From: Porphyridium purpureum
Taxonomy: Eukaryota
DNA length: 64,000 nucleotides
Direction: 5' to 3'
Assembly: GCA_008690995.1 (NCBI GenBank)
Contig: VRMN01000001.1
Location: 2,356,001 to 2,420,000 of the forward strand
Positions 7,510-27,186 of the stretch are shown here, piece by piece; the first letter of the stretch is position 1, and each line of letters opens with the position of its first letter. The notes under the pieces are model-generated. The model was not told the origin of the DNA and ran no database searches. It saw nothing but the letters and a program-made list of their open reading frames with translations. Both the position numbers and the translations under genes were made by a program.

Positions 7510-7700
7510 CAAGACGCAGTTGTCCTACACTATTAGCTTGCGGTCTTCAAGTCTGACCGCCTACCATCTATCTTGCGCTTTTATTTCACTGATGAGCATG
7601 TCGCACCTATCGTTCTTGCCCAGGTAAAAAAAACAAACAAAAAAAACGACGTGGCGCGCGGCTCGAGTGTTTCAACTAGCAGAGGCGCTTTCGCGGACAC

Positions 7701-8474
7701 TCACATGAAGTCGTCATAGTCTGTTCCCAGGACGCCGCGGCCACCGGAACCTGGGCCACCGAGTGGATCATCGTCTCGGTCAACCATGATGTGCGTCTTC
7801 TTGGCCGTCTTCTTTTTCTTGCCTTGCGCGGCCGACTTGGCTTTCAACTTTTCATTTGCGAGCACATTGCACGTGCTGGCGAGGTCCTTGACATCGTCCG
7901 CGTCTAGTTCCCCAGTTCCTTCACGTAAAATACTCTTTAGTACGTTCATATACCGCTCCGGCCGCCGCGGATGGTACAACGGCGAAATCTTCTCCACCAG
8001 CAGTTTGACGAATTTCTCGTCGTCCTTGGATGTCTTTAGGGCAATGTTATCTAGCGTCGGCTCATCCGGATCTGCGTCTTCGTCGTCATCGGGCGCTGCG
8101 TCCATGAAGAGGTCTTTGGCGTTCTCCAGGTCGGCCTTCTCGACCATTTCCTGCATGCGCGCACGCCGCTCCGCCACAGATAGACCCTCAAGCTCCTTTT
8201 CCAGTGCATCTGCCTTGTCTCGCGCCTTGCGCGCCTCTTCAGCTTCTCGCAGCTTGATTTTTTCTTCCAGCAACTGCTTTCTGCTCTTGGGTTTACTGCT
8301 CTCGGCTTCGCTCCCATTTACCGCGGACTCGTGTGCCGACGCGGGAGCCGAAGCTGCGGCCGGTGCCGCCACCTCTTCCTCAGATTCTTGGTCTTCCTCA
8401 TCCCAAGTCGCCTTCACAGCGGCCGGCTGAAGCACCGGCTTGACTTCAAAATCGTCGGCTTCCCAATCTGACAT
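7701..8474 (-). CDS. EIF3J: Eukaryotic translation initiation factor 3 subunit J
   Basis: MSDWEADDF...WDEED acidic N-terminus, VEKADLENAKDLF, LANEKLK and the C-terminal DYDDFM hallmark. The ATG at 8474 is preferred over the track start. Confidence 0.93.
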   Translation of the reverse strand: MSDWEADDFEVKPVLQPAAVKATWDEEDQESEEEVAAPAAASAPASAHESAVNGSEAESSKPKSRKQLLEEKIKLREAEEARKARDKADALEKELEGLSVAERRARMQEMVEKADLENAKDLFMDAAPDDDEDADPDEPTLDNIALKTSKDDEKFVKLLVEKISPLYHPRRPERYMNVLKSILREGTGELDADDVKDLASTCNVLANEKLKAKSAAQGKKKKTAKKTHIMVDRDDDPLGGPGSGGRGVLGTDYDDFM

Positions 8475-9311
8475 GACGATCGCACGGCCACCAGAGAGCC
8501 ACCACCGAAGCCACCACGCACCCACGCCGCGAATATGCCAGAAGTAAGCGTGATGTCCGCTGCCAGAAGTACTCGAGTTCTTTCTGCGAAATCTACCGCC
8601 CCGCCACGCGACAAGTAATGATGACCGCTCGTTGCCACTCACACAATCCATTCAACAAACCTTCTCCCCTTCGCCCGTTTTCCACCCCGCGGGGCGCTTC
8701 GACTCGGCCAACTCGGTGCCAAGGGGTGTTCACTTAGAAGTACAGCTGCGACCTAAAGCCAGTACAGTTTAGGTACAGTGCTGATCTGGAACGAAGAGGT
8801 ACAGTTCTGTAAAGTTGCTCATGTGTGAGGGCCGTCGAAATGTGCACATGTGCAAGGTAAGATAATGGCTCAGTGACGTTGATGGGAAAAAAAAGAGAAA
8901 GAACTGGTCGACACCGCATGACAACACGCTACGCTCGCGCTCACATTGTGTTTGTCGGTAACCCCCACTACCACGTAAGATTCTGTTCCATTCCTTCCGC
9001 TTCAGATTGTTTACGCTGGGCTGTAAAAGAACGCCGGCGTCATGTCCATAGAACGCGCAATTGGTAGATGTGCCAGCATCGGGTCCGCGTCTCGCGCGAT
9101 CCACGTAAGACTAAAGAGCGGGGGGTTACAGTCGCGAGGATTCCGAGCGAGACAAATGAGCGCGTGCGGATGTTGCTCATGGATTTGGTTTCAGCTATAA
9201 AGCACGCCGCCGAGCCCGTCGCCGTCACGCGTTTGTCAATGAGATTGACGCGGAACACCAGAAAAGCAGAACATCAGAACATGCAAAGCCCGGAAAACAC
9301 AATAACAGAAC

Positions 9312-9689
9312 ATGGAAAGGCTGTCGAGGGAGTGCAAAAGGCAACTGCCACACCAGAAACAACCGTTGCACAATATTGTCGAGTACGCAGTGTGCGGGTC
9401 GCAGTGTCGGTGCGCGCCACTTCTCATCAACTTCGCGTCGTCCGAGCACCTAGAGGGGCATTCTGCGCCGCAAATGAACGACACGCAATCAAGTCCGGAG
9501 AATCACGAATCCAGCCAAGATCCCGCGTCGAGTTCTGACGCACAGGAGCGAATGGGACGCTCTCGGAGCAGAACGAGTCGACCTGACGATTATCGTCCAC
9601 ATAATCACCATCACGCTCCGGCCCGGACATGCTCGAGAAGAAAGTGTACATGCACAAACACGAGGAAACGCAAAGTCTCAAGCCAGTAG
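9312..9689 (+). CDS. Small orphan protein, tandem family copy 1 (possibly only a 3' exon or fragment)
   Basis: Ends ERMGRSRSR...RPHNHHHAPARTCSRRKCTCTNTRKRKVSSQ, paralogous to the ORFs at 11352 and 13268. Confidence 0.5.
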   Translation: MERLSRECKRQLPHQKQPLHNIVEYAVCGSQCRCAPLLINFASSEHLEGHSAPQMNDTQSSPENHESSQDPASSSDAQERMGRSRSRTSRPDDYRPHNHHHAPARTCSRRKCTCTNTRKRKVSSQ

Positions 9690-11351
9690 CTTGGATTAGA
9701 GAGCAGCAGAACTCGTGATACATCTGTGGGAAAAACAGAATGGGCATGTAAAATGGGTGTGAAGTGGGCATCAAGCATTTTTTTTAAAACTTTCTAGACG
9801 ACCTTGTCGTCTAATCTCAGAAGCAAACGACTTGCTCGCTTTCGCGCTGCTCGAGTACCCAGCCAACACCACGTGTTGAGCTGGAACTGGCCGGCCGCCC
9901 TCGCTCCAAGCCGTTTAGGTTTGGCTCCAATCCCCACCGACAACAGAGAGGCCTTTCACGAGAGATGATCCTGCAACATGACTCTTGCAAGATCCATTTC
10001 GAGGAGCTCAGATGAAGCGAAAGCCGAATCGTTCCGCTTGCTCCCTCGTCTCACCCAGTAAACAGAAGCAGAGGCTTCGAGGGACAAAGTCTCCGATGGA
10101 GACCCGTACGTAATCACCTGGTTTTGAAAATAAATTTAAATGTGTTCCTTGGAGGTGGCTCGGCAATGCCGGTGGTTTCAGCATGGCTTCGACTGGATAA
10201 CCAATGCGCATTGCACACTTTGGCGCCACGCAAAATGTTTAGTTCTCCATGTCTTCATCGGACGTGTATCTTGGTGCCCTGTTGCGCACTTTGGCTGTTA
10301 CCAGAAATGCCCGAGGTGCGAGGAATGATTGGCTCGCGTGAAGCAAGTTTGGCGTACCTCTAGCTCCAAGCTGCAGCGCGGTCTCTCAGGAACTTTCAAG
10401 CTGCGACTCCTGTTAACCCAGCCTTCTGGTCCGACACGAAATCGGAAGCGCTAGACTGCTATCTGTGGCACGCCTTTGGCCACACCAAGCCACAAGCCAG
10501 ACCTTGCAAGCCGATCGCACATGTCAAAACGTTTGCCAAGCACGGCCCTCCCGCTCCCCTGCGCCGCTCAGCCCACACGTGCGTCCACTAGAGCGCGTCG
10601 CGTACAGCTTTGAGGTACAGCAAAACTGACAGAAAGCTCGATCTGTTTGGCGTTTTCTACGCAAAACACATGATGACGTGTCTACGCGGATTTTCTATCG
10701 TTTTGTTCTCGTTCTCAAACGGGGCCGATTTATTATTCCTGTGCTGCTGACAAGGCACCAAGATGACGCGTAGCCAACGAAGAAGCGTTTTCTGTGGGTG
10801 CCGAATGTTGGGGGTAGCAAAATGGCACACGCACTCGACCGTTGCAATACGAAGAATCTATCGCAACCAGATTGACCACGGCGCGCGTGCGAGCGCTTGC
10901 CACGTGTAGGTTGGATTGGAAAAGTGCAACACGCGCACGGTGGCCCAAGCGTTGTTTGCGACACGCCGTGATTTCTTAATCAACGCTGTCGTTTTGTCAA
11001 CGGCTGTCGCTGTTCTACGCGTGTGCAACAGGAGCGCGGGCTGCAAGGCGCACCGGTCTCTTGACTCGCTTTCATTCAGCGCCTCGGCAAGTGAAGCCAC
11101 AGCGTGACATCGCGCGATGCTCTATGTGTGCACGACAGAATCGTCAGCGGTACTAGGTAACTTGCGTCGGTCCAGCATGCAAAATGCACCGCCTGTCCTT
11201 GCGCACCGGCTTATCGTGGGATTGTCCGCGCAGCTTCCGTGCATGTAGTTCCATGTGATTTACAACGGTCGATCCTCGCGATTGGAGCCACCGTGTCGAG
11301 TATTTATACGGCCTCTCACTCACTGGGTCAGAAAAGTTTCGACGACAGCGC

Positions 11352-11780
11352 GTGGTGACCAGGAGCAGCAAGTCACGTTTGGTGGGCAATCAGACAAAAG
11401 CAGAACGTAAGGGTCTCATCGAAAGTATCAAAAATCGCCTTCTCATGATTAAGTGTGGCGCGCTTAGCCGGCCGTCTCAAGAGTACCCAATGGAGATTCG
11501 TATCATCTCTGCGCCAAGCAAGCCAGACAGTGAAGACTCTTTGTCGCAATGTGTCGACAACAAGTCCGGCCAGGAGAACGAGGAGCCGGGCAGGGAGAAC
11601 AAGGAGTCCGGTCAAATCCATACCACGGGGTCTTGCGCGGAGGAGCGGGCGGGACGCTCCAAGAGCCGGGAATATGGACCTCACCATCGTCGTCCACACA
11701 ATTACCATCACGCTCCGGCCCGGCCGAGCTCGAACTCGCGGTGCCTTTACATGAAGAAGCGCAAGGTCTCCGGTGAATAG
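11352..11780 (+). CDS. Small orphan protein, tandem family copy 2 (frame open from 11259; true start uncertain)
   Basis: Ends ERAGRSKSR...RPHNYHHAPARPSSNSRCLYMKKRKVSGE. DNA similarity to copy 1 is mostly third-position differences in the motif. Confidence 0.5.
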   Translation: MVTRSSKSRLVGNQTKAERKGLIESIKNRLLMIKCGALSRPSQEYPMEIRIISAPSKPDSEDSLSQCVDNKSGQENEEPGRENKESGQIHTTGSCAEERAGRSKSREYGPHHRRPHNYHHAPARPSSNSRCLYMKKRKVSGE

Positions 11781-13108
11781 TTCTTGGCTTGTTTCCGTCA
11801 GACAGTTCGACAATTGTAAAAATGTGAAAGAACAATGTGGAAAGCAGACCACAAGAAAAACGGAGCGTTGCTCACTACAGCTTTGTTTCTAGCGAATCAA
11901 TAGAGACTGGATGTACGGACTCCGACGAAAGGTGCCCCTCCTCCGTATCCTCCATTCGGAGAAAGCCATCCCAGATAAGTGTTTTCGCGCAGCCAGATCC
12001 CATGCGGCATGTTCTTCAAGACACATCAAAACATACACGCGCTCTGCCATGGCGTCATCTCTGGCACTCCGACGCTTCCATGTCCTGGCCGGATTGCCGT
12101 AGTTCCAGAAAGACTCTCACATGGCCGCGAGAGATCGCAGCCCGTCCGCCGGTAAATGAGGTTTCCCAGGCCGCCTGACACCATGCCCAAGACCCTGCTT
12201 AACAGTTTTGCCAGCTGGGGTCATCCGGCGTCAACCAGGACTAACTCGCTGCCACGCAATGCCTTGCGTCACGCGAAAGGCCCTGCATGGCAGCGCATAT
12301 TTGATATGCCCCCGTGCATTTTCCCATGCGTGGAAGCAAGGACGGGACAAACGAATACTGGCTGGCTCGCTTTTCGGCTGACGCTGTTCACTTCTTCCCG
12401 TATCATGCCTTTCCTGGGTTCGCGCACACCGTATCCGGAGCGCATGCTCCAAACTGCTTTGCACACCTGTCTGTCCTCGCATGACCCGTACGATTTCACT
12501 TTCGCACCTGTTGATTTCGTCTACACTCGGTTTTTCTCCCCCTCCGTGCTGACTTGGATTGTGGAAAAGATAATGCTCTTTGTCACTTGATCTCCAACTC
12601 GCGCTTGATACATATTCCCGCATGAACACATGCACCCTCACGTAAACGTATGTGCAACCTGCAGCCCTCCGCCGTTTCTCCGTAGCCTAAAATAAATGCT
12701 GAACGTGACGGCCAGGTGTCGTTGAAAAGACAAACATACACAGACACAGACACACACACGCACATGAAAAGCGACTTCCCCGACGCCTTGCCGATTCGGA
12801 TCTTGCTTAATCAGAATTCTGGTTTTGATTTTTTACTTCTCGGCTGTTGTGCAACTGAACAAGGGTACCGTTTCGATGAAAAGCAGGCGCTGGCAAAGCA
12901 CGGGGCTTGATCTTCTTGTGATTCAAGTGCTAACCCGCAGGTTGACGCGTAGCTTTCAGATACGTAATCGGCCTTTTCCAATGATCTTTCGTAGCTGTGC
13001 CTGCATTGTGTCTAGTCAGATATCGCGCGACAGCACGTGAAAAGCATACGTTTGTGCTTTTTGAGAGTCTCCGTCGCGATATTTCGCAGATTCTGGTGCG
13101 GAAGGACA

Positions 13109-13537
13109 ATTGAGCTGTCTCGCGAACCCAGACGCCTATAAAGGCATGAAGCGAGAGAAAGGCGAGGACGTTTCGACGGCAGTGATTGCAGAGCAGGTCC
13201 AAACCAAGAAGAGGTAACAGGGCTGCTACGGGATACGAATACGCAGAGCTTCGGAGAAGACACGAAAATGACGATTTGCGACGAGTTTTCCAGGAGCTCT
13301 TCTCGTGACTCGTGTGACAGCAAGGCCACTTGCCACGAGTCTGAGCCATCGCTACGTACTGAGAACTGGTCGGATTGCCAAGAATCAATGCAAGATTCAA
13401 CGAGCGAAGGGCGCGTTGGACGGGAGAGGACGAGGGATAACGAATTTTCGCGCTCTCGCCGCCAACGCCGACACGCACCGGCACGAACATGTGCTTCTAG
13501 GCAATGCCCATGCAAAATTCATCAGGTTTCGGCTTGA
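13109..13537 (+). pseudogene. Tandem family copy 3, possibly decayed (in-frame TAA at 13139; ATG-started ORF 13268-13537)
   Basis: Ends GRVGRERTR...HAPARTCASRQCPCKIHQVSA. The upstream same-frame LSREPRRL resembles LSRECKRQL of copy 1 but is followed by a stop. Confidence 0.4.
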
Positions 13538-16500
13538 CTGCATAGAATTTAGACGTCTTTCTTTAATTTAAAATTGAGTCGTTCATCCAACTTCATTTCC
13601 CTGGAAGTCAAGTAATGTCACTACCTTGAGGTGCGCGCGCACTGGTCGCTTTCTTCACACAGTTAAGAAAGCCAGGAGAAATTCTCGAACCAAAAGACTA
13701 ACCTGCGCTTGCGAACGAGTGCGCCAAGATAGTGTACCAAAGCCCGTGTGCCAAATAGAATCTGCATTTGTGCGATCGGTGAATTTTCCTCTCCTCTGCG
13801 CGTCGGCTGGGAAAGCAGCGGCCAGGGTACCATCACTGTTGTCTGAGCCTTCAAATGACGCTCGCCCACTACCCACATTCGCAACAAACCGAACGAACAC
13901 TGCACGGCACCAAGTTTTCGCTCTTTCTCCGCACACCAACGCGGTCATCAATGTCCTCGCCCTTCCGCCGAGCTGCCAGGCTGCGATGAGAGAGCATTCA
14001 TTTCGTGATTCCCAGCAAGGTCAAGTACTTAAGTGCCGTTTCATCTCTTTCGATGTCGAACGGCGCACCTATTCTGGACAGTTTGCGACTCTGGTTTCGC
14101 ACCCGTGCGGAGAAGCTCGTCTCCACCGGAGACATGAAACTTCCATTCCCGACTTTTGCAATATGAAGGTGGAAAGAAGCGAAAGCCCAGAGAGGCGGAT
14201 TGACAGGCTGTATACAGGCCGCATACAGTCCACCTGCTCCTCGCCAGCGCGGGAGGCGGTGCGATTACATGTGTCCGCGGCTGGTAAGTGAGCCTGCAGA
14301 AAGAACGCCGCAACGCGCGGCAGTCCAGGAGCACGTCGATTTGAGCCGACAAGTCAGACTTCTTTCCTTGCGCTCGTGGAAAAGGCTGATTGAGTCAGCT
14401 TGAGCGCAAAGAGAGCGCGTGCGTTACGTGTTCCACAAAAGCGCATGGGGCATGCCCCATGTGCTGCGTAGACTTATTATTTTTCGCTGCTGGAAAGAAA
14501 TGATCATGTGTGTCGAGGCTGTATCAGATGCCGATTTGGATCGTAATCACTAAGTGTCTATGACAGGCGCAGGCTTCTCGTTGAACGGTAGTCTGCTATA
14601 CCCGTCTGATGAGGCGGCCGGAAAAAGACTTGGGCGTGAGGCGCAAGAGCAAGCTGTTGAGCATGGCGAACATGGGTTTGTTCGATTGCGGTTTGCCGGC
14701 GACATCGGGACCCCCTGGACGGCGTTCAAGTGGACACATACGGCAGGAACGACTTGGAGCAAATGACCACGAGACAACGAGAAGGAGCCTGCTCGGAACA
14801 GCGTTTCAGGTGTAAATCAAGACTGTTCCACCGCACCGGTACCCTCTCGTCGCGCTGCTCGCCCAGGTCGTGATTGTCTTCGGTATGTGCGAGTCTAGCC
14901 ATATGCTGGAGGCTAAACGCCGCACGCAGTGTAAGAACCAACTCAAACCAGACTTTGCGCACCTTCAAGAGGTCGAGACTGGTGATAGACTGGAGCATGC
15001 GGAAGACATGCTGCGCAGGTGCTGGAGCGTTATGGCACTTATTCTAGCGACCTTGAAGGATGTGTTGCAGGGCTTGGTGCTGGCGGGCAACGACAATACG
15101 CAGGACGGCGGACTGGCAATAAGTGCAGGTAGGCTCTTCGTCATGAATGACTCCTTCGGGCACAATATTACCCAGCTCGTTCTATTAACTCAAAGGAGAT
15201 TTGAGTCATCACACGGCTACACTGAAAAAAGGGCGGCCAGATCCGGACCTCTGGAAGTACTGAACCCGCTTTCCTGGTGCTCCCAAGTCCGAGGATAGCG
15301 CGTAAGGGCTACTGACGAATTCACAAACGTCACTTGCGTTGTGGATCAAGGCCATCAAGGGTATAGCGTAGCTGGGGCTTGCTGCTTATCTTGGCGTGTG
15401 AGATCGGGCAGGCGGTTCAGGACAGAGGTTTGGACGTCTTCTTTTAATAAGCGCTGATAACAGATTCATTCGACCCGTGCTCGCGTCTCTCGATCACCTC
15501 TTTCATCTCGGCTGGCCTTTTGGTCGCATCGAGCACGAGCTGGGGCACGACGAGCCTTGTATTTCGAATTGCCGCACCCACGGTGTGCATTGCGTCCACT
15601 GATTCCAACCTCATTCACGACCTGACGGTTAGCGCGATTCCGTCTGGTGCAGTCTTTGATGCACGCGCAACGGCCATTCAAGGCACAACAGTCCAAGCCG
15701 CCATGTCGTCTAGGTGCGACTTGCAGGCGCGCGTGGTCAAGCAGCTTCCATACCCCATTTTGTTGGACATTGTGGCTACTTTCCTTGGTCTTGTCAAGGC
15801 CAGCGACGAAGATGCGTCTCGGGTCGACCTTCTGGCACTCTACTTTTGGCTTTATGTTTGCGGTTTTGTTCAAGCCTGTTGTTGGCGTGCACATCAATCA
15901 CGCCGAGTCAAAGCTGCGTATCTTCACACGACTGAAGAAAGCAGTACGCATACGCAAGCTACGAAAGGAGCTGCGCGTGTTCAGAGAGGTAATTGTGGAA
16001 CGGGAGGAGTACGTGGGTAACTTTCGTTCCAACATTTCGTCGACGTCGACCGTTTCCGACTCTTTCTTGTACCGACGAGAGCCGAACGAGATTTCAAAGC
16101 CAGGCCCTGTGGCGACCAAGGCTCATTGAGGATCTCTTTAACAATCGCACGAGCCCGATCCTGAGCTCGCGCGCCGGATGCGGCCGAAAGAGGAGGCGGT
16201 GAACGAGTCCGTCGCGCAGGACGACGCCAGACCCGGATGAGGAGCAGCCGCCGCCGACGCGGCGCAGAGCATGGAGATAATTGAACGCTTTGTCTTTGAC
16301 CTGACCACAGAAGGCGTCGTTCGAGCTTGTCCACACCGATGCAAGCATTTCGCGAGTCCACCACGCACCTGGTAGCTGCACGCACGCGCACTGCACGCGC
16401 CAACGATGGAGGTACACGCAAAGGTACACTCAACTTGTGCGCGGCGCTGAAAGCCTAATAAAACGACCACTTTGAATCGGCGTTGTGTGGAAGGGATGAA

Positions 16501-18167: not shown

Positions 18168-20447
18168 TTATACAGTTGCGAGAGATCCGGCTTTGGTCAC
18201 GAGGCGGTCCACCCATCGAACCGCCCCGCACCAGCGGAGGCTTGCCAGAATTTTGAGAGGCATAACTAGCAACGCGGCTAGAGCAGCGCTCGAGTCCTTC
18301 GATAACCACACAAAAACACGCGGATGGCACGACGCGCGAACACCATTCACCACGATGTTTTGGTTCCAAACGAGAGCGTTCACAGCCCGTGTCACACCTG
18401 CATCTTTAACGCTGAGAACGTGAAGCACATGACCCGCCGCGGAAACGAGTTGATCGCCTTGCGCCAATTCGCCGATTGTTGCTAAAGCTGGCTTACCGTG
18501 GCGCCGCGTATACACCATGTGATGTGGCGTGCCTGTCAACTGCCCCGTTCCACCATTCTCAGTATCCCAAAAGTGAACCACCAGCATCGGAACACGCACT
18601 GCAAAGTGATCATCCCGATGCTGAAGCAAAACAAGTCGCTCAAATTGCGTTGTCGCTGCATTTTCAGTACCAAACGACTCGACAAGGTCTCCTTCTTCAA
18701 GTTCGTCCAGTCTCTTCGTCATCACTAGACCTGAGGAAGGCTCTCGGACGCGCACCATGCTGTCTGCAGCGAAGCACGCCGCGCCAACATTCGAGCCATC
18801 ATTCGAACCGTCGTCGGTCACATTCGGCATGTTAGGTTGGTTGGGCCCTCCGGGATACACGAGGCCCCGCGCGTCCGCGCTGAAGCGCACGGCTCGCATC
18901 GTTCCGTCAAACAGCTCCATGCCCGAAGGACGAATGTATCTACTTTCCAATACGAAGCCGTCCGTGGCCGAATACGTCCTAGGACGTAGCTCGATTCCGA
19001 CCGACATCAGGCCCAGAGCGCCGTACGAATAGTCAATTGAAATGCCTGCAGCTCGGTAAAGCGTAGTCGATGCCGGACCTGACGTGTAATTCAGCCCGTA
19101 TCTCGCGGTCATGGCAGACGCGATCGTGTCGGCAAAGGTATACAACGATTCGTCGTCCGCACGGTCAAACTTGTACGCGTAAGGTGCGAGCACAAGCTGA
19201 CCGTAAGAGTGGACGTCGACATAAAACGCGATGCCCCGCTCGCCCTCAAGCAAGCTTCGGATGGCTTGGGTCTCCGGTTCACTGAATGCCTCCGTGCCGC
19301 GGAAAAGCGAAGAACAGATGTCATTGGAAGAAGTCGAGACACCTCCAAAACCAACAGGGTAATTGCGGTTCAAGTCGACCCCGGTGCAGGGCGAGTCTAA
19401 ATCCACTGCGCGCCTATTTTTGCGCCAGAAGCGATTGCGTTCGAATGTGTGCACGTATCCATCCGGGTTGACAATCGGCACCAGCACAAGCTCGACATTG
19501 TCCAGTAAGGCTACGATCGCCTTGTCTGTCTTCTTCGTATACTGCAAGCACAGAACTTCGGCAACGTAAATCACTGAGCTCACTGCAATCCATTCACGCG
19601 CGTGCTGCAGCCCCGTCATGACTCCGCGCACCGGAGACGACGAGGATGTGCGACCCACTCGAAAAGCATAAATGGGCCGCCCACTGGATGAGGCTCCCAA
19701 CGTGACCAGACTCAGCACCTCGGGATATAATTCGACCAGCTCCTCCATGTGTTTGTAGACGTCATCCAGATCTCGGTAGGTGTCGTAGAACGAAGAAGCA
19801 TAGAAGGTTCCGTTTTCATCCGTTGATTGGGGTAGAGGCTCTGGGCTCGATTCCGGAGAGACACTGGAGGTCCCATTCGCGTCCACGGGTTCCTCTGTAG
19901 TCTCGCTGCTCTCTTCCTGTTCGTCCGACGGATTACCTTGCCGGCCGAGCCCATCCATCTGATTTGAATGGGACTTGACCGCTGAGTCAAGGAACAATTC
20001 AGCGAGGCTATGGAGTACCACTTCCAGATCCGCAGGCGGTTGTAATGCCTCCAGCGCGGCCAACTGAGATTCGGACACGAAAATGCAAGTCCGCTCACCA
20101 TCATATCGGAGCGCATCTAAATCACCTTCACAGGTCTCGAATGCCCCAAGCGACGCCATCAAGTCGCCAATGCGCGTGGCATCCTGTTCATCCTTGGGGA
20201 AGACCGATACCGCAGCATATCCAAGCACGTCTTCGGGGGTCACACTCTCGCGCACGCTGAGAGGCACGAACGCCAGATTATTGGCGTCGACGTGCTCACG
20301 AAGACTGCGTGATTGCCGCGGAGCGTATACCCGACTCACGATCTGCTCTCTCACTTGAGTTGGTACGCCTTCGACACGCATCAGCGCCCCAGACCATAAT
20401 GTCAAAAACAGTACTAAGCACAGACTGATACATTGACACCTCTTCAT
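18168..20447 (-). CDS. Secreted M14 zinc carboxypeptidase fused to a C-terminal Hedgehog-type Hint domain
   Basis: Signal peptide MKRCQCISLCLVLFLTLWSGALMRVEG. M14 motifs are HAREW, NPDGY, WRKNR, GVDLNRNY, FSEPET, DVHSYGQ and IELR. The Hint begins at GAA|CFAADSMV (Cys codon 18774-18776), with LEEGDLV, TPHH and IVVNGVRASCH. Confidence 0.9.
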   Translation of the reverse strand: MKRCQCISLCLVLFLTLWSGALMRVEGVPTQVREQIVSRVYAPRQSRSLREHVDANNLAFVPLSVRESVTPEDVLGYAAVSVFPKDEQDATRIGDLMASLGAFETCEGDLDALRYDGERTCIFVSESQLAALEALQPPADLEVVLHSLAELFLDSAVKSHSNQMDGLGRQGNPSDEQEESSETTEEPVDANGTSSVSPESSPEPLPQSTDENGTFYASSFYDTYRDLDDVYKHMEELVELYPEVLSLVTLGASSSGRPIYAFRVGRTSSSSPVRGVMTGLQHAREWIAVSSVIYVAEVLCLQYTKKTDKAIVALLDNVELVLVPIVNPDGYVHTFERNRFWRKNRRAVDLDSPCTGVDLNRNYPVGFGGVSTSSNDICSSLFRGTEAFSEPETQAIRSLLEGERGIAFYVDVHSYGQLVLAPYAYKFDRADDESLYTFADTIASAMTARYGLNYTSGPASTTLYRAAGISIDYSYGALGLMSVGIELRPRTYSATDGFVLESRYIRPSGMELFDGTMRAVRFSADARGLVYPGGPNQPNMPNVTDDGSNDGSNVGAACFAADSMVRVREPSSGLVMTKRLDELEEGDLVESFGTENAATTQFERLVLLQHRDDHFAVRVPMLVVHFWDTENGGTGQLTGTPHHMVYTRRHGKPALATIGELAQGDQLVSAAGHVLHVLSVKDAGVTRAVNALVWNQNIVVNGVRASCHPRVFVWLSKDSSAALAALLVMPLKILASLRWCGAVRWVDRLVTKAGSLATV

Positions 20448-24924: not shown

Positions 24925-27186
24925 TTATCGTCGCTTCTTGACCTTGAAGCCCTCCGATTCCGAGTCGACAAATGTGGTGTCCTGGAACTTAAGCCGCCTT
25001 GTCTTGGCATGCTTCGACTGCACGGGCTTTTCAAACACGCAATTTTCAAAGCGCACGCCGGACATCTTCGCAGCCTCAAACAGCGTGTCGCCCTTGAACA
25101 CGCAGTAGCTGAACACAACATTCTTCAACGTAGCGTCCGAAAAGTCCGCCTCCTCTTCAAACGTCACGTCTGTGAATCGCGTCTTGCTCAAGTAGCTGCC
25201 AACAAACTTGGCCGGTCCGCTGAACGAGATATTTGTGAAGCGTGCGCTGCTCACCTGGGTGCCAGATATGCGCAAAAGCGAGCCTTTTCCGAATACCGAG
25301 TCCACCAGATCAAACCTATCGAGCTTGCTCTTCGAGACGCGCAATTGGCCGCCCTCCACTACTTTCACACCGGAAACGCTCATTTTCGAAGCCTTGCTCT
25401 TGTCCACGGAAACCAAGCCTGCCACTTGCACAGCGCTCATCTTCACAGCTGCCAGCGTCGACTCCTCGATGGACAGTGTACCGTCAATGACGAGCTGCTC
25501 CATTGAAACGGCCTTCATCGAGCCCTTGAACGCGCGGAAAACGTCCTTGATCCAAAGCTTTTTCAGCTCTACCTTCGCAAGGGTGGGTTCGCGAAGGACG
25601 ACAGCCCCTCCAAAACCAATATCGTGAATCTGAACTCGATTCAGCTTTGGTTTCTCGAATACGGCCGACCCGCCAAAGAGAACCACGCTCGCGGTGCACT
25701 TCAACATTTTCAGGCCACCCATAAATGACGACTTGCGTATCTCGACCTGAGCAGAGAAGTCAACGAAAAAAAGAAAATCAAGAAAAGAAGACAAAGAAGG
25801 GAGAGCACAGAAGAGAGATCAAACGATAAAGATATTCGCGTTCTGTCAGATATCATTCTCGTCCAGAGCTGGCACCTACACTGCACGAACCGATGCTCTC
25901 AAGACCATGTACAAACACGTTACGGCCGGCAAGACGCGATAAAGGGCGCGAGCACCGGTGCTTTTTTCATGTTCCCAGCGGTACTTTTTTCTTGCTCAAG
26001 TAACACAGATTCGGAGTTATACCACTGGGAACGTAGCCCCGCATACCCGCAGTACGAATCTTGAGCGTGATTTGCCTTGCTGCCATACAATCAAACATGG
26101 TCATATGATGAAGCGAAAAGACAAACAAAGCAGACTAAAAAGAAGATGAGTAAGTGTGCAGCGTAAACGTACCTCATCGAAATCGGATTTAAACAGGTAC
26201 GGCTTCTCCATCGATGCACTGCCTGCCACCGCCACGTTCGAGACCTGCGAGCTTTTAACAATCAGCTTGTCCATGACAAGATCCTGAGCCACGTCGAGTC
26301 CACGTACTTCGCTACTGACCAGCTTTGGCGCTGTTAAACGCATGCTACCAGAGACGACCATGTTCACGAGCTGTGATTTGCTTAAATACATCTTGACCGC
26401 GTCTAGCGCGCCCAGTGCAGCATTGAACACGCGAGTTTGGTGCAAGTACGGCTTGAAGGCGCTGGTGCTACCCGCCACGCGAATGGAGCGGAGCACAGAC
26501 TTGTAAAAGTACGGCTTCTGAACAGTGAGAGGCCCGTAAACATCCACGTCGCTGACAAGTGAATCGTCAAAGTACGGCTTGAAAAGATCTGCGCTGCCCT
26601 TGAATATCATGCCGAGCAGCATGGTTGTCTTTGCGTACGGCTTGTACATGATCGCCGGTTCCATGAAAAATACACTGTTCATGTAAGATTTGCGCAGTGT
26701 CCAGGCTCCAAACCGCGACGTCGACACGAATGTTGCGTTGGACCACGCGCTCTTGAATCCGTACAATTTCCCTGTGGTGCCGACGCCCGCAAAGGTCGTG
26801 TTTCTGAGCGCGGTTTTCTTGTACGAAGCCCACTTCGACTGCTTCAGGGGCAGTGCGACCACGGCATTATCCACGCGCGCCTTGAAGATCTGGACAAAGG
26901 CGTTGTCCTGGATGTCGAACGGATCATAGGACTTTGAGGTCCAAATCGCGGCGGTATCGCGGGTGACGAACGCCGGGATGCCCGGTCGCGTGATCACAAT
27001 CAGCACGACGGCCATGATCATCATCAGCGCCGAGAACATGACTGCGGCGCCGAGCCCGACCATCACGAGCGGGTTCTCGAGCGTGTCGGCGGCGCTGTCC
27101 GGCACGCCCATGTCCTTGAGCTTCTTGTGGAACGCGGAGCCGCCCGCTCCCCCGCCCGCCGCTGGCGCAGCCCCGACCGTCGCCAT
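24925..27186 (-). CDS. Membrane-anchored beta-solenoid / pentapeptide-repeat protein; two exons (27186-26173, 25746-24925)
   Basis: TM segment LVMVGLGAAVMFSALMMIMAVVLIVI, then 21-22 aa repeats with recurrent KPY. The later units resemble pentapeptide repeats (FTDVTFEEEADFSDATLKNVVFSYCVFKGDTLF). Splicing joins the two track ORFs in phase 0 as ...KSDFDE|VEIRKS... Confidence 0.8.
25747..26172 (-). other. Spliceosomal GT-AG intron, 426 nt
   Basis: Donor GAG|GTACGT, long pyrimidine tract, TTGAC branch-like site and acceptor CTCAG|GTC. Removal restores the frame and the repeat pattern. Confidence 0.8.

Follow-up and report, generated by a model that had tools for sequence, protein, structure and literature searches.

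Transition protein 2 and protamine 2 are small, disordered, basic chromatin proteins rich in Arg, Ser, His and Cys, and in metallothioneins Cys makes up roughly a quarter to a third of the residues. Here we describe a tandem family of three small genes, A, B and C, in a 64-kb stretch of the genome of the alga Porphyridium purpureum (GCA_008690995.1, contig VRMN01000001.1, positions 2,356,001 to 2,420,000 of the forward strand; hereafter the window, within which all positions are counted). Like transition protein 2 and protamine 2, their products have about 100 residues with much Arg, Ser, His and Cys, are predicted to be disordered, and carry RS-like repeats and a basic C-terminal signal. However, they show no sequence match to these proteins, carry an acidic head and contain 16-18% Arg plus Lys; charge and Arg plus Lys content are much higher in protamines. 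The likeness is therefore one of analogy, not of membership.

With metallothioneins and His/Cys zinc knuckles the three proteins share small size, the presence of Cys and His, probable regulation and, in A and C, a spaced His-Cys-Cys-Cys set. They differ in their low Cys content, in having no repeated CxC/CxxC array and no Pfam match to such proteins, and in the absence of the spaced set from B. They also resemble orphan gene families, which are likewise short, fast-evolving, expressed, constrained and without detectable homologues; judging from the excerpted text of one study of such families, A, B and C do not differ from them in kind (PMC7660931).

Three tandem paralogous genes under constraint

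A reading made from the DNA letters alone (hereafter the sequence-only reading) had proposed a tandem family of three orphan open reading frames (ORFs) with a shared C-terminus. The family is real, and its outer coordinates (the ATG of A at 9312 and the stop of C at 13537) as well as the codons quoted for it match the sequence. All three ORFs lie on the plus strand between the gene for eIF3j (7701-8474, minus strand) and 13.6 kb, at a spacing of about 2 kb. In tblastn searches against the window, A matches B at 51% over 63 aa (E 1.5e-14) and C at 38% over 52 aa (E 1.1e-7), and C matches B at E 6e-4; the best matches outside the family, among the matches listed, have E 0.012-0.028. Leave-one-out hidden Markov models (HMMs) recover the omitted member from 1315 six-frame ORFs with E 7.5e-14 for B, 1.8e-16 for A and 6.7e-6 for C, the best outsiders in the same runs having E 0.0068, 0.037 and 0.13, respectively, and they detect no fourth copy in the window. 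The motif HAPAR occurs three times in the window, always in A, B or C; 60 Markov simulations gave a mean of 0.33 occurrences, and only one reached three. A, B and C are tandem paralogous intron-free genes.

The alignment of the three proteins contains a C-terminal core of about 60 residues in which E-N, Q, S, R-x-G-R, R, R, HAPAR, C and V-S are invariant. A terminal V-S followed directly by the stop codon had been described; V-S is present in all three, with one or two residues between it and the stop. The proposed conserved module of His/Cys plus KRK holds in part, KRK being found in A and B but not in C (which has KIHQVS) and H-x5-C-x4-C-x-C in A and C but not in B. The four-ligand pattern of a putative His/Cys zinc module is thus kept in two of the three members, and the alignment has just one invariant His and one invariant Cys as potential ligands.

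The statement that differences fall mostly at third codon positions does not hold for the family. Counted by first, second and third position, the differences number 25/15/24 for A-B, 26/26/41 for A-C and 23/31/37 for B-C, so that third positions account for 24 of 64, 41 of 93 and 37 of 91. Selection on the C-terminal part, which the sequence-only reading had also suggested, is nevertheless borne out. The ratio of non-synonymous to synonymous differences per site (pN/pS) in the core is 0.54 for A-B (bootstrap interval 0.34-0.84), 0.51 for A-C (0.37-0.68) and 0.63 for B-C (0.46-0.87), all three intervals lying below 1, and in all three pairs it is lowest in the ORF frame among the six frames. 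The corrected ratio (dN/dS) is 0.39 for A-B and 0.26 for B-C and is undefined through saturation for A-C; synonymous sites near or at saturation point to an old tandem duplication. Alignment gaps of 3, 6 and 9 nt keep the frame, and the same gaps appear in an independent DNA alignment. Rather than being conserved equally beyond the stop codons, the DNA loses its similarity there: z is 15.1, 4.7 and 4.2 in the core of the three pairs and 0.8, -1.2 and -0.2 in the 100 nt past the stop.

Variation among strains agrees with this constraint. In a listing of 40 of 106 variant rows, two variants fall inside A, and one contig of run X4 gives three inside C; none of those listed falls inside B, and all five in A and C are synonymous (P 0.0006-0.0016). 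The G+C content at third codon positions (GC3) of A (0.60) and B (0.68) is in the range of 19 genes of the window (0.56-0.82), and that of C (0.53) is slightly below it. We consider it very likely that A, B and C form a real protein-coding family.

Transcripts and promoters

Nineteen runs from eight studies cover half or more of the words sampled from 7600-14400; that they are RNA is only a guess for most of them. Strand data come from three raw-read runs of one further study, their strandedness being shown by eIF3j; seven of the 24 listed runs were aligned. A, B and C are all transcribed in sense as single exons. Relative to eIF3j, sense depth (bin means) is 20-36 times for B, 3.1-7.3 times for C and 0.27-0.51 times for A. 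Read depth over the B coding sequence (CDS) reaches 557-2480, and A has a depth of 15-28 (bin 9368-9588), its support consisting of sense reads only.

Two of the open frames lie in a sense transcript with defined ends, B with a 5' end and poly(A) sites and C with a poly(A) site and a step in depth. The 5' end of B is sharp, 11372 having 507 molecules in run X22, where the adjoining depth is 1101, and for C the depth doubles from 188 to 388 between the bins 13183-13213 and 13214-13244. The ORF's own ATG is the first after the 5' end of B and likewise after the main start of C, a short upstream ATG (13146) lying 5' of the latter. For A, shorter in-frame starts exist at 9474 and 9552, and an overlapping upstream ORF in another frame could reduce its translation. 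Upstream of the B start, variants at 11124, 11343 and 11348 have a frequency near one half in each of the three raw-read runs; a second copy, two alleles or a mixed culture could account for them.

RNA-read alignments over 7600-14200 support no splice joint for A, B or C. Just two joints were seen: one, from 8903 to 7626, leads from one A-rich tract to another in 2-3 reads, and the other, from 11620 to 11769, has 3 reads in a single run. GT-AG intron candidates spotted by eye were discarded, having no supporting joint. The lack of splice joints, together with the sharp 5' end of B, argues for whole single-exon genes rather than the last exons that had been considered, and the further suggestion of partly decayed copies disagrees with the open frames and the synonymous strain variants.

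Each gene has a TATA or TATA-like box upstream (Table 1). Counting both strands, the window has 16 matches to the pattern TATAWA or TATTTATA, and the plus-strand matches in 8600-14400 are these three alone. The same pattern lies within 300 nt upstream of three of 29 other long ORFs, at 107-137 nt from starts that are unverified first ATGs. The flanks of A, B and C otherwise retain no similarity, and the copies are not independent for statistics on the box; that the box was kept while the flanks lost their similarity suggests selection on it. Similarity among the leaders is at most weak, the score being reached by 7 of 500 shuffles for B-C, 39 of 500 for A-B and 164 of 500 for A-C. From these promoters we infer that expression is regulated rather than housekeeping. 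The box stands about 70 nt before the main 5' end in B and roughly as far in C; in plants and animals this distance is usually shorter, 25-30 nt.

Downstream of each gene, an RNA from the minus strand converges on it and extends up to or across the 3' end of the gene. The RNA downstream of A contains no ORF longer than 67 aa, and three of the four listed variants within that ORF are non-synonymous; it is likely a long non-coding RNA. The RNA over the 3' end of B (11800-12623) carries an ORF of 130 aa (12231-12623) in which three of the five listed variants are synonymous and inside which a cluster of read ends lies at 12586. A six-frame comparison of the three antisense regions gave no similarity above background. 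Convergent antisense RNAs may be ordinary in a compact genome.

Table 1. Positions of the features of the A, B and C locus within the window
Feature	Coordinates	Strand	Remarks
Gene A CDS	9312..9689	+	125 aa; acidic Ser-rich head; basic tail HHHAPARTC-x4-C-x-C; end RKRKVSSQ
Gene B CDS	11445..11780	+	111 aa (96 aa if second ATG, 11490, is used); end MKKRKVSGE
Gene C CDS	13268..13537	+	89 aa; Arg-rich stretch; HAPARTC-x4-C-x-C; end KIHQVSA
Gene B mRNA	11368..11860	+	5' ends 11368-11372; poly(A) 11835, 11843, 11860; unspliced
Gene C main mRNA	13200..13590	+	poly(A) 13590; weaker upstream starts back to ~12772
TATA box of gene A (TATAAA)	9196..9201	+	116 nt 5' of ATG 9312; putative, from its position
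TATA-like box of gene B (TATTTATA)	11301..11308	+	144 nt before ATG; ~70 nt before main 5' end
TATA box of gene C (TATAAA)	13137..13142	+	131 nt 5' of ATG 13268
Out-of-frame overlapping upstream ORF	9281..9538	+	85 aa; GC3 0.45; both listed variants non-synonymous in its frame
RNA downstream of A	9770..10530 (ends approximate)	-	~2 times eIF3j depth; no conserved ORF seen
RNA over B 3' end	11800..12600 (ends approximate)	-	convergent with B
RNA over C 3' end	13570..14200	-	5' end past examined stretch

The window has about 55% G+C along its whole length and densely packed, long, uninterrupted ORFs of eukaryotic type, and the neighbouring genes encode, besides eIF3j, an Rpb4-family protein, a TPR protein and an M14 zinc carboxypeptidase fused at its C-terminus to a Hint module (18168-20447, minus strand), the last with a TATA box lying 123 nt upstream. 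At 24925-27186 on the minus strand, two neighbouring ORFs of repeat-like sequence, the first with pentapeptide-repeat Pfam matches, are possibly another tandem pair. For eIF3j (7701-8651, minus strand), the public model has 316 aa from an upstream ATG, the Pfam match spans 257 aa from 8474 and read depth falls near 8650-8700; the annotated start may be too far upstream. The ClpP of the window has nearest clusters that are mostly eukaryotic and algal or plant, and its N-terminal extension begins with a Phe-containing motif. Set beside the transit peptides and genomes of red algae, these features suggest a unicellular red alga, probably Porphyridium-like.

Homologue searches

The claim that the family is an orphan stands, no homologue having been detected in protein, profile or DNA searches. 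Pfam returned only DUF4820 at 15.3 bits, below its cut-off of 27. Searches with the three-protein alignment against 5.8 billion clustered proteins gave none of 257 candidates at E<=1 and none of 3314 longer candidates at E<=10, and a profile search of 1.84 billion representatives gave none at E<=0.001. PDB had no match, NCBIfam and PHROGs none for any of the three proteins, and the ESM Atlas, with B as the only query, no usable match. In DNA scans, none of 80 candidate stretches in viral contigs and none of 526 in prokaryote genomes matched. One metagenome match among 575 was rejected, being an ATG-less shadow frame over an apparent bacterial membrane-protein gene.

A collection of 15 billion proteins that contains two of the five neighbours tried as well as the longer eIF3j model has none of five exact translations made from A, B and C, so the genes are probably unannotated, although other gene models of A, B and C may exist. 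Protein sets derived from transcriptomes often omit ORFs near 100 aa. The paralogs score just 22-53 bits against each other, and the nearest relatives of eIF3j are 51-52% identical; at scores and identities this low, homologues would probably be difficult to detect, and blank searches are weak evidence of novelty. According to the excerpted text of the study of orphan families, homology detection failure accounts for many orphan genes (Weisman, Murray, Eddy 2020, PMC7660931). Lineage specificity, which the sequence-only reading had proposed, is inseparable here from failure to detect homologues. Literature searches covering few subscription papers listed nothing relevant on the family; gene-level expression tables could carry the genes under locus names. 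What is new here is the family; its kind is ordinary.

A possible nuclear role and its alternatives

The three proteins are hydrophilic (GRAVY about -1.35; 11-15% hydrophobic residues), and from their composition, with no predictor applied, neither a signal peptide nor a membrane stretch is evident. Their charge is split between an acidic Ser-rich head of net -4 to -7 and a basic tail of net +9 to +11 (isoelectric point 11-12), and the whole chain carries +2 to +7. RS-like and CK2-type sites are present in A, B and C. An AlphaFold model of the B product from the three-sequence alignment has no confident fold (mean pLDDT 56.7, pTM 0.13), consistent with the predicted disorder. In the excerpts of a cited source, the classical monopartite nuclear localization signal (NLS) has the consensus K-K/R-X-K/R, as in SV40 PKKKRKV, and in one virus protein an RKRK signal outside this consensus directed GFP into the nucleus (PMC10807245). 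The KKRKV at the end of B fits the consensus and equals the final five residues of the SV40 signal; RKRKV in A lies outside the consensus but resembles the atypical RKRK signal, and C has an Arg-rich run only.

The reading that we prefer, with a probability of about 0.4, is that A, B and C are constrained, disordered, TATA-driven small proteins whose basic tail serves nuclear entry and the binding of DNA or RNA. TATA-regulated genes would be translated into small disordered proteins with an acidic head and a basic tail. The tail would carry the protein into the nucleus, by a good motif in B, an atypical one in A and an Arg-rich run in C, and there bind DNA or RNA non-specifically; the acidic head and Ser phosphorylation may act as a brake on this binding. 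Given that the family is real and protein-coding, we put a nuclear nucleic-acid-binding function a little short of an even chance.

Several observations weigh against the preferred reading. The alignment behind the pN/pS values was protein-guided and covers a region selected for its similarity, which biases the values downward, and the test on synonymous variants is small (40 of 106 rows), one of three variants being synonymous in the eIF3j control. Variant density is not significantly lower in the C CDS (3/265) than upstream of it (11/478; P 0.40). A is weakly expressed and has an out-of-frame ATG of similar context 31 nt upstream of its own. C has no KRK, and A fails every NLS pattern tried. 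Models from three sequences are often poor whatever the protein, and a shallow alignment would by itself be expected to yield no fold. Basic disordered tails have many roles, and charge alone does not show nucleic-acid binding.

Two alternatives accept the proteins and assign them another function. In one, HAPAR and the C-terminal V-S-x(1-2) would dock a partner, for example by the phospho-dependent mode III of 14-3-3 proteins, and the products would be inducible inhibitors or adaptors. HAPAR, R-x-G-R and V-S are indeed invariant islands within a fast-changing disordered chain, and all three proteins end in S-x(1-2)-COOH, two of them with the upstream basic residues of the mode III pattern, which the excerpted source gives as a C-terminal S/T-x(1-2)-COOH with upstream basic residues (PMC12421828). 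C has no such basic residues, however, and the pattern is weak because nine of 27 other ORFs of the window also have an S/T-x(1-2) end; we regard docking as a minority prospect that deserves some weight. We are slightly more doubtful of small metal-binding or metal-buffering proteins, in which H-x5-C-x4-C-x-C in the tail would bind Zn or Cu and metal or oxidative stress would induce the TATA promoters. A and C, whose synonymous sites are saturated as a pair, both have the exact four-ligand pattern, His and Cys together account for 9-13% of residues, and one His and one Cys are invariant. But in B, the most expressed member, two of the three Cys positions are occupied by Ser and Tyr; in the family Cys content is only 3.6-7.9%, Pfam gives no metallothionein or zinc-finger match, and the best-kept residues, A-P-A-R and R-x-G-R, are not ligands.

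The other two alternatives would make the ORFs relics. That the transcripts function as RNA, or do so together with the convergent antisense RNAs, the ORFs being non-coding or decaying copies, would fit the missing exact translations, the minus-strand RNA opposite each copy, the competing upstream ORF in A and the C core, which folds better than shuffles (z -2.5). It is quite unlikely, given the frame-specific constraint, the frame-keeping gaps, the end of similarity at the stop and the synonymous variants; moreover, the folds of A and B do not stand out from those of shuffles (z -0.75 and +0.29), the covariation term of the consensus fold is unfavourable (+1.56, from three sequences), Rfam gives no match and the antisense regions resemble each other no more than background. 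The C coding region does contain a long hairpin at 13409-13470, as stable in 4 of 200 shuffles, which A and B do not share. A transposon or virus remnant, such as a basic nucleocapsid-like peptide, would be short, basic and His/Cys-containing like these proteins and could explain repeats about 2 kb apart, but we judge it very improbable. Around the copies the locus shows neither terminal inverted repeats nor long direct ones; viral contigs (0 of 80 stretches), PHROGs and Pfam gave no match; and the 14 proteins scanned have no mobile-element domain, the flanks being eIF3j and other cellular genes.

An extended form of the preferred nuclear reading would make A, B and C lineage-born, stress-switched, protamine-like microproteins that package chromatin or RNA, with a HAPAR tail gated by the head, a new His-Cys-Cys-Cys zinc module in two paralogs and tuning by antisense RNA; we hold it unlikely.

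Families of small, disordered orphan proteins are common in eukaryotes, so the finding is useful rather than surprising, and it would surprise only if a chromatin-packaging or new metal-binding role were true. It adds a real, highly expressed family that public protein collections seem to lack. With an mRNA at 20-36 times the depth of a core translation factor, B lends itself to inexpensive work by proteomics, GFP tagging and knockout, and the short TATA promoter of B may serve expression work in this alga.

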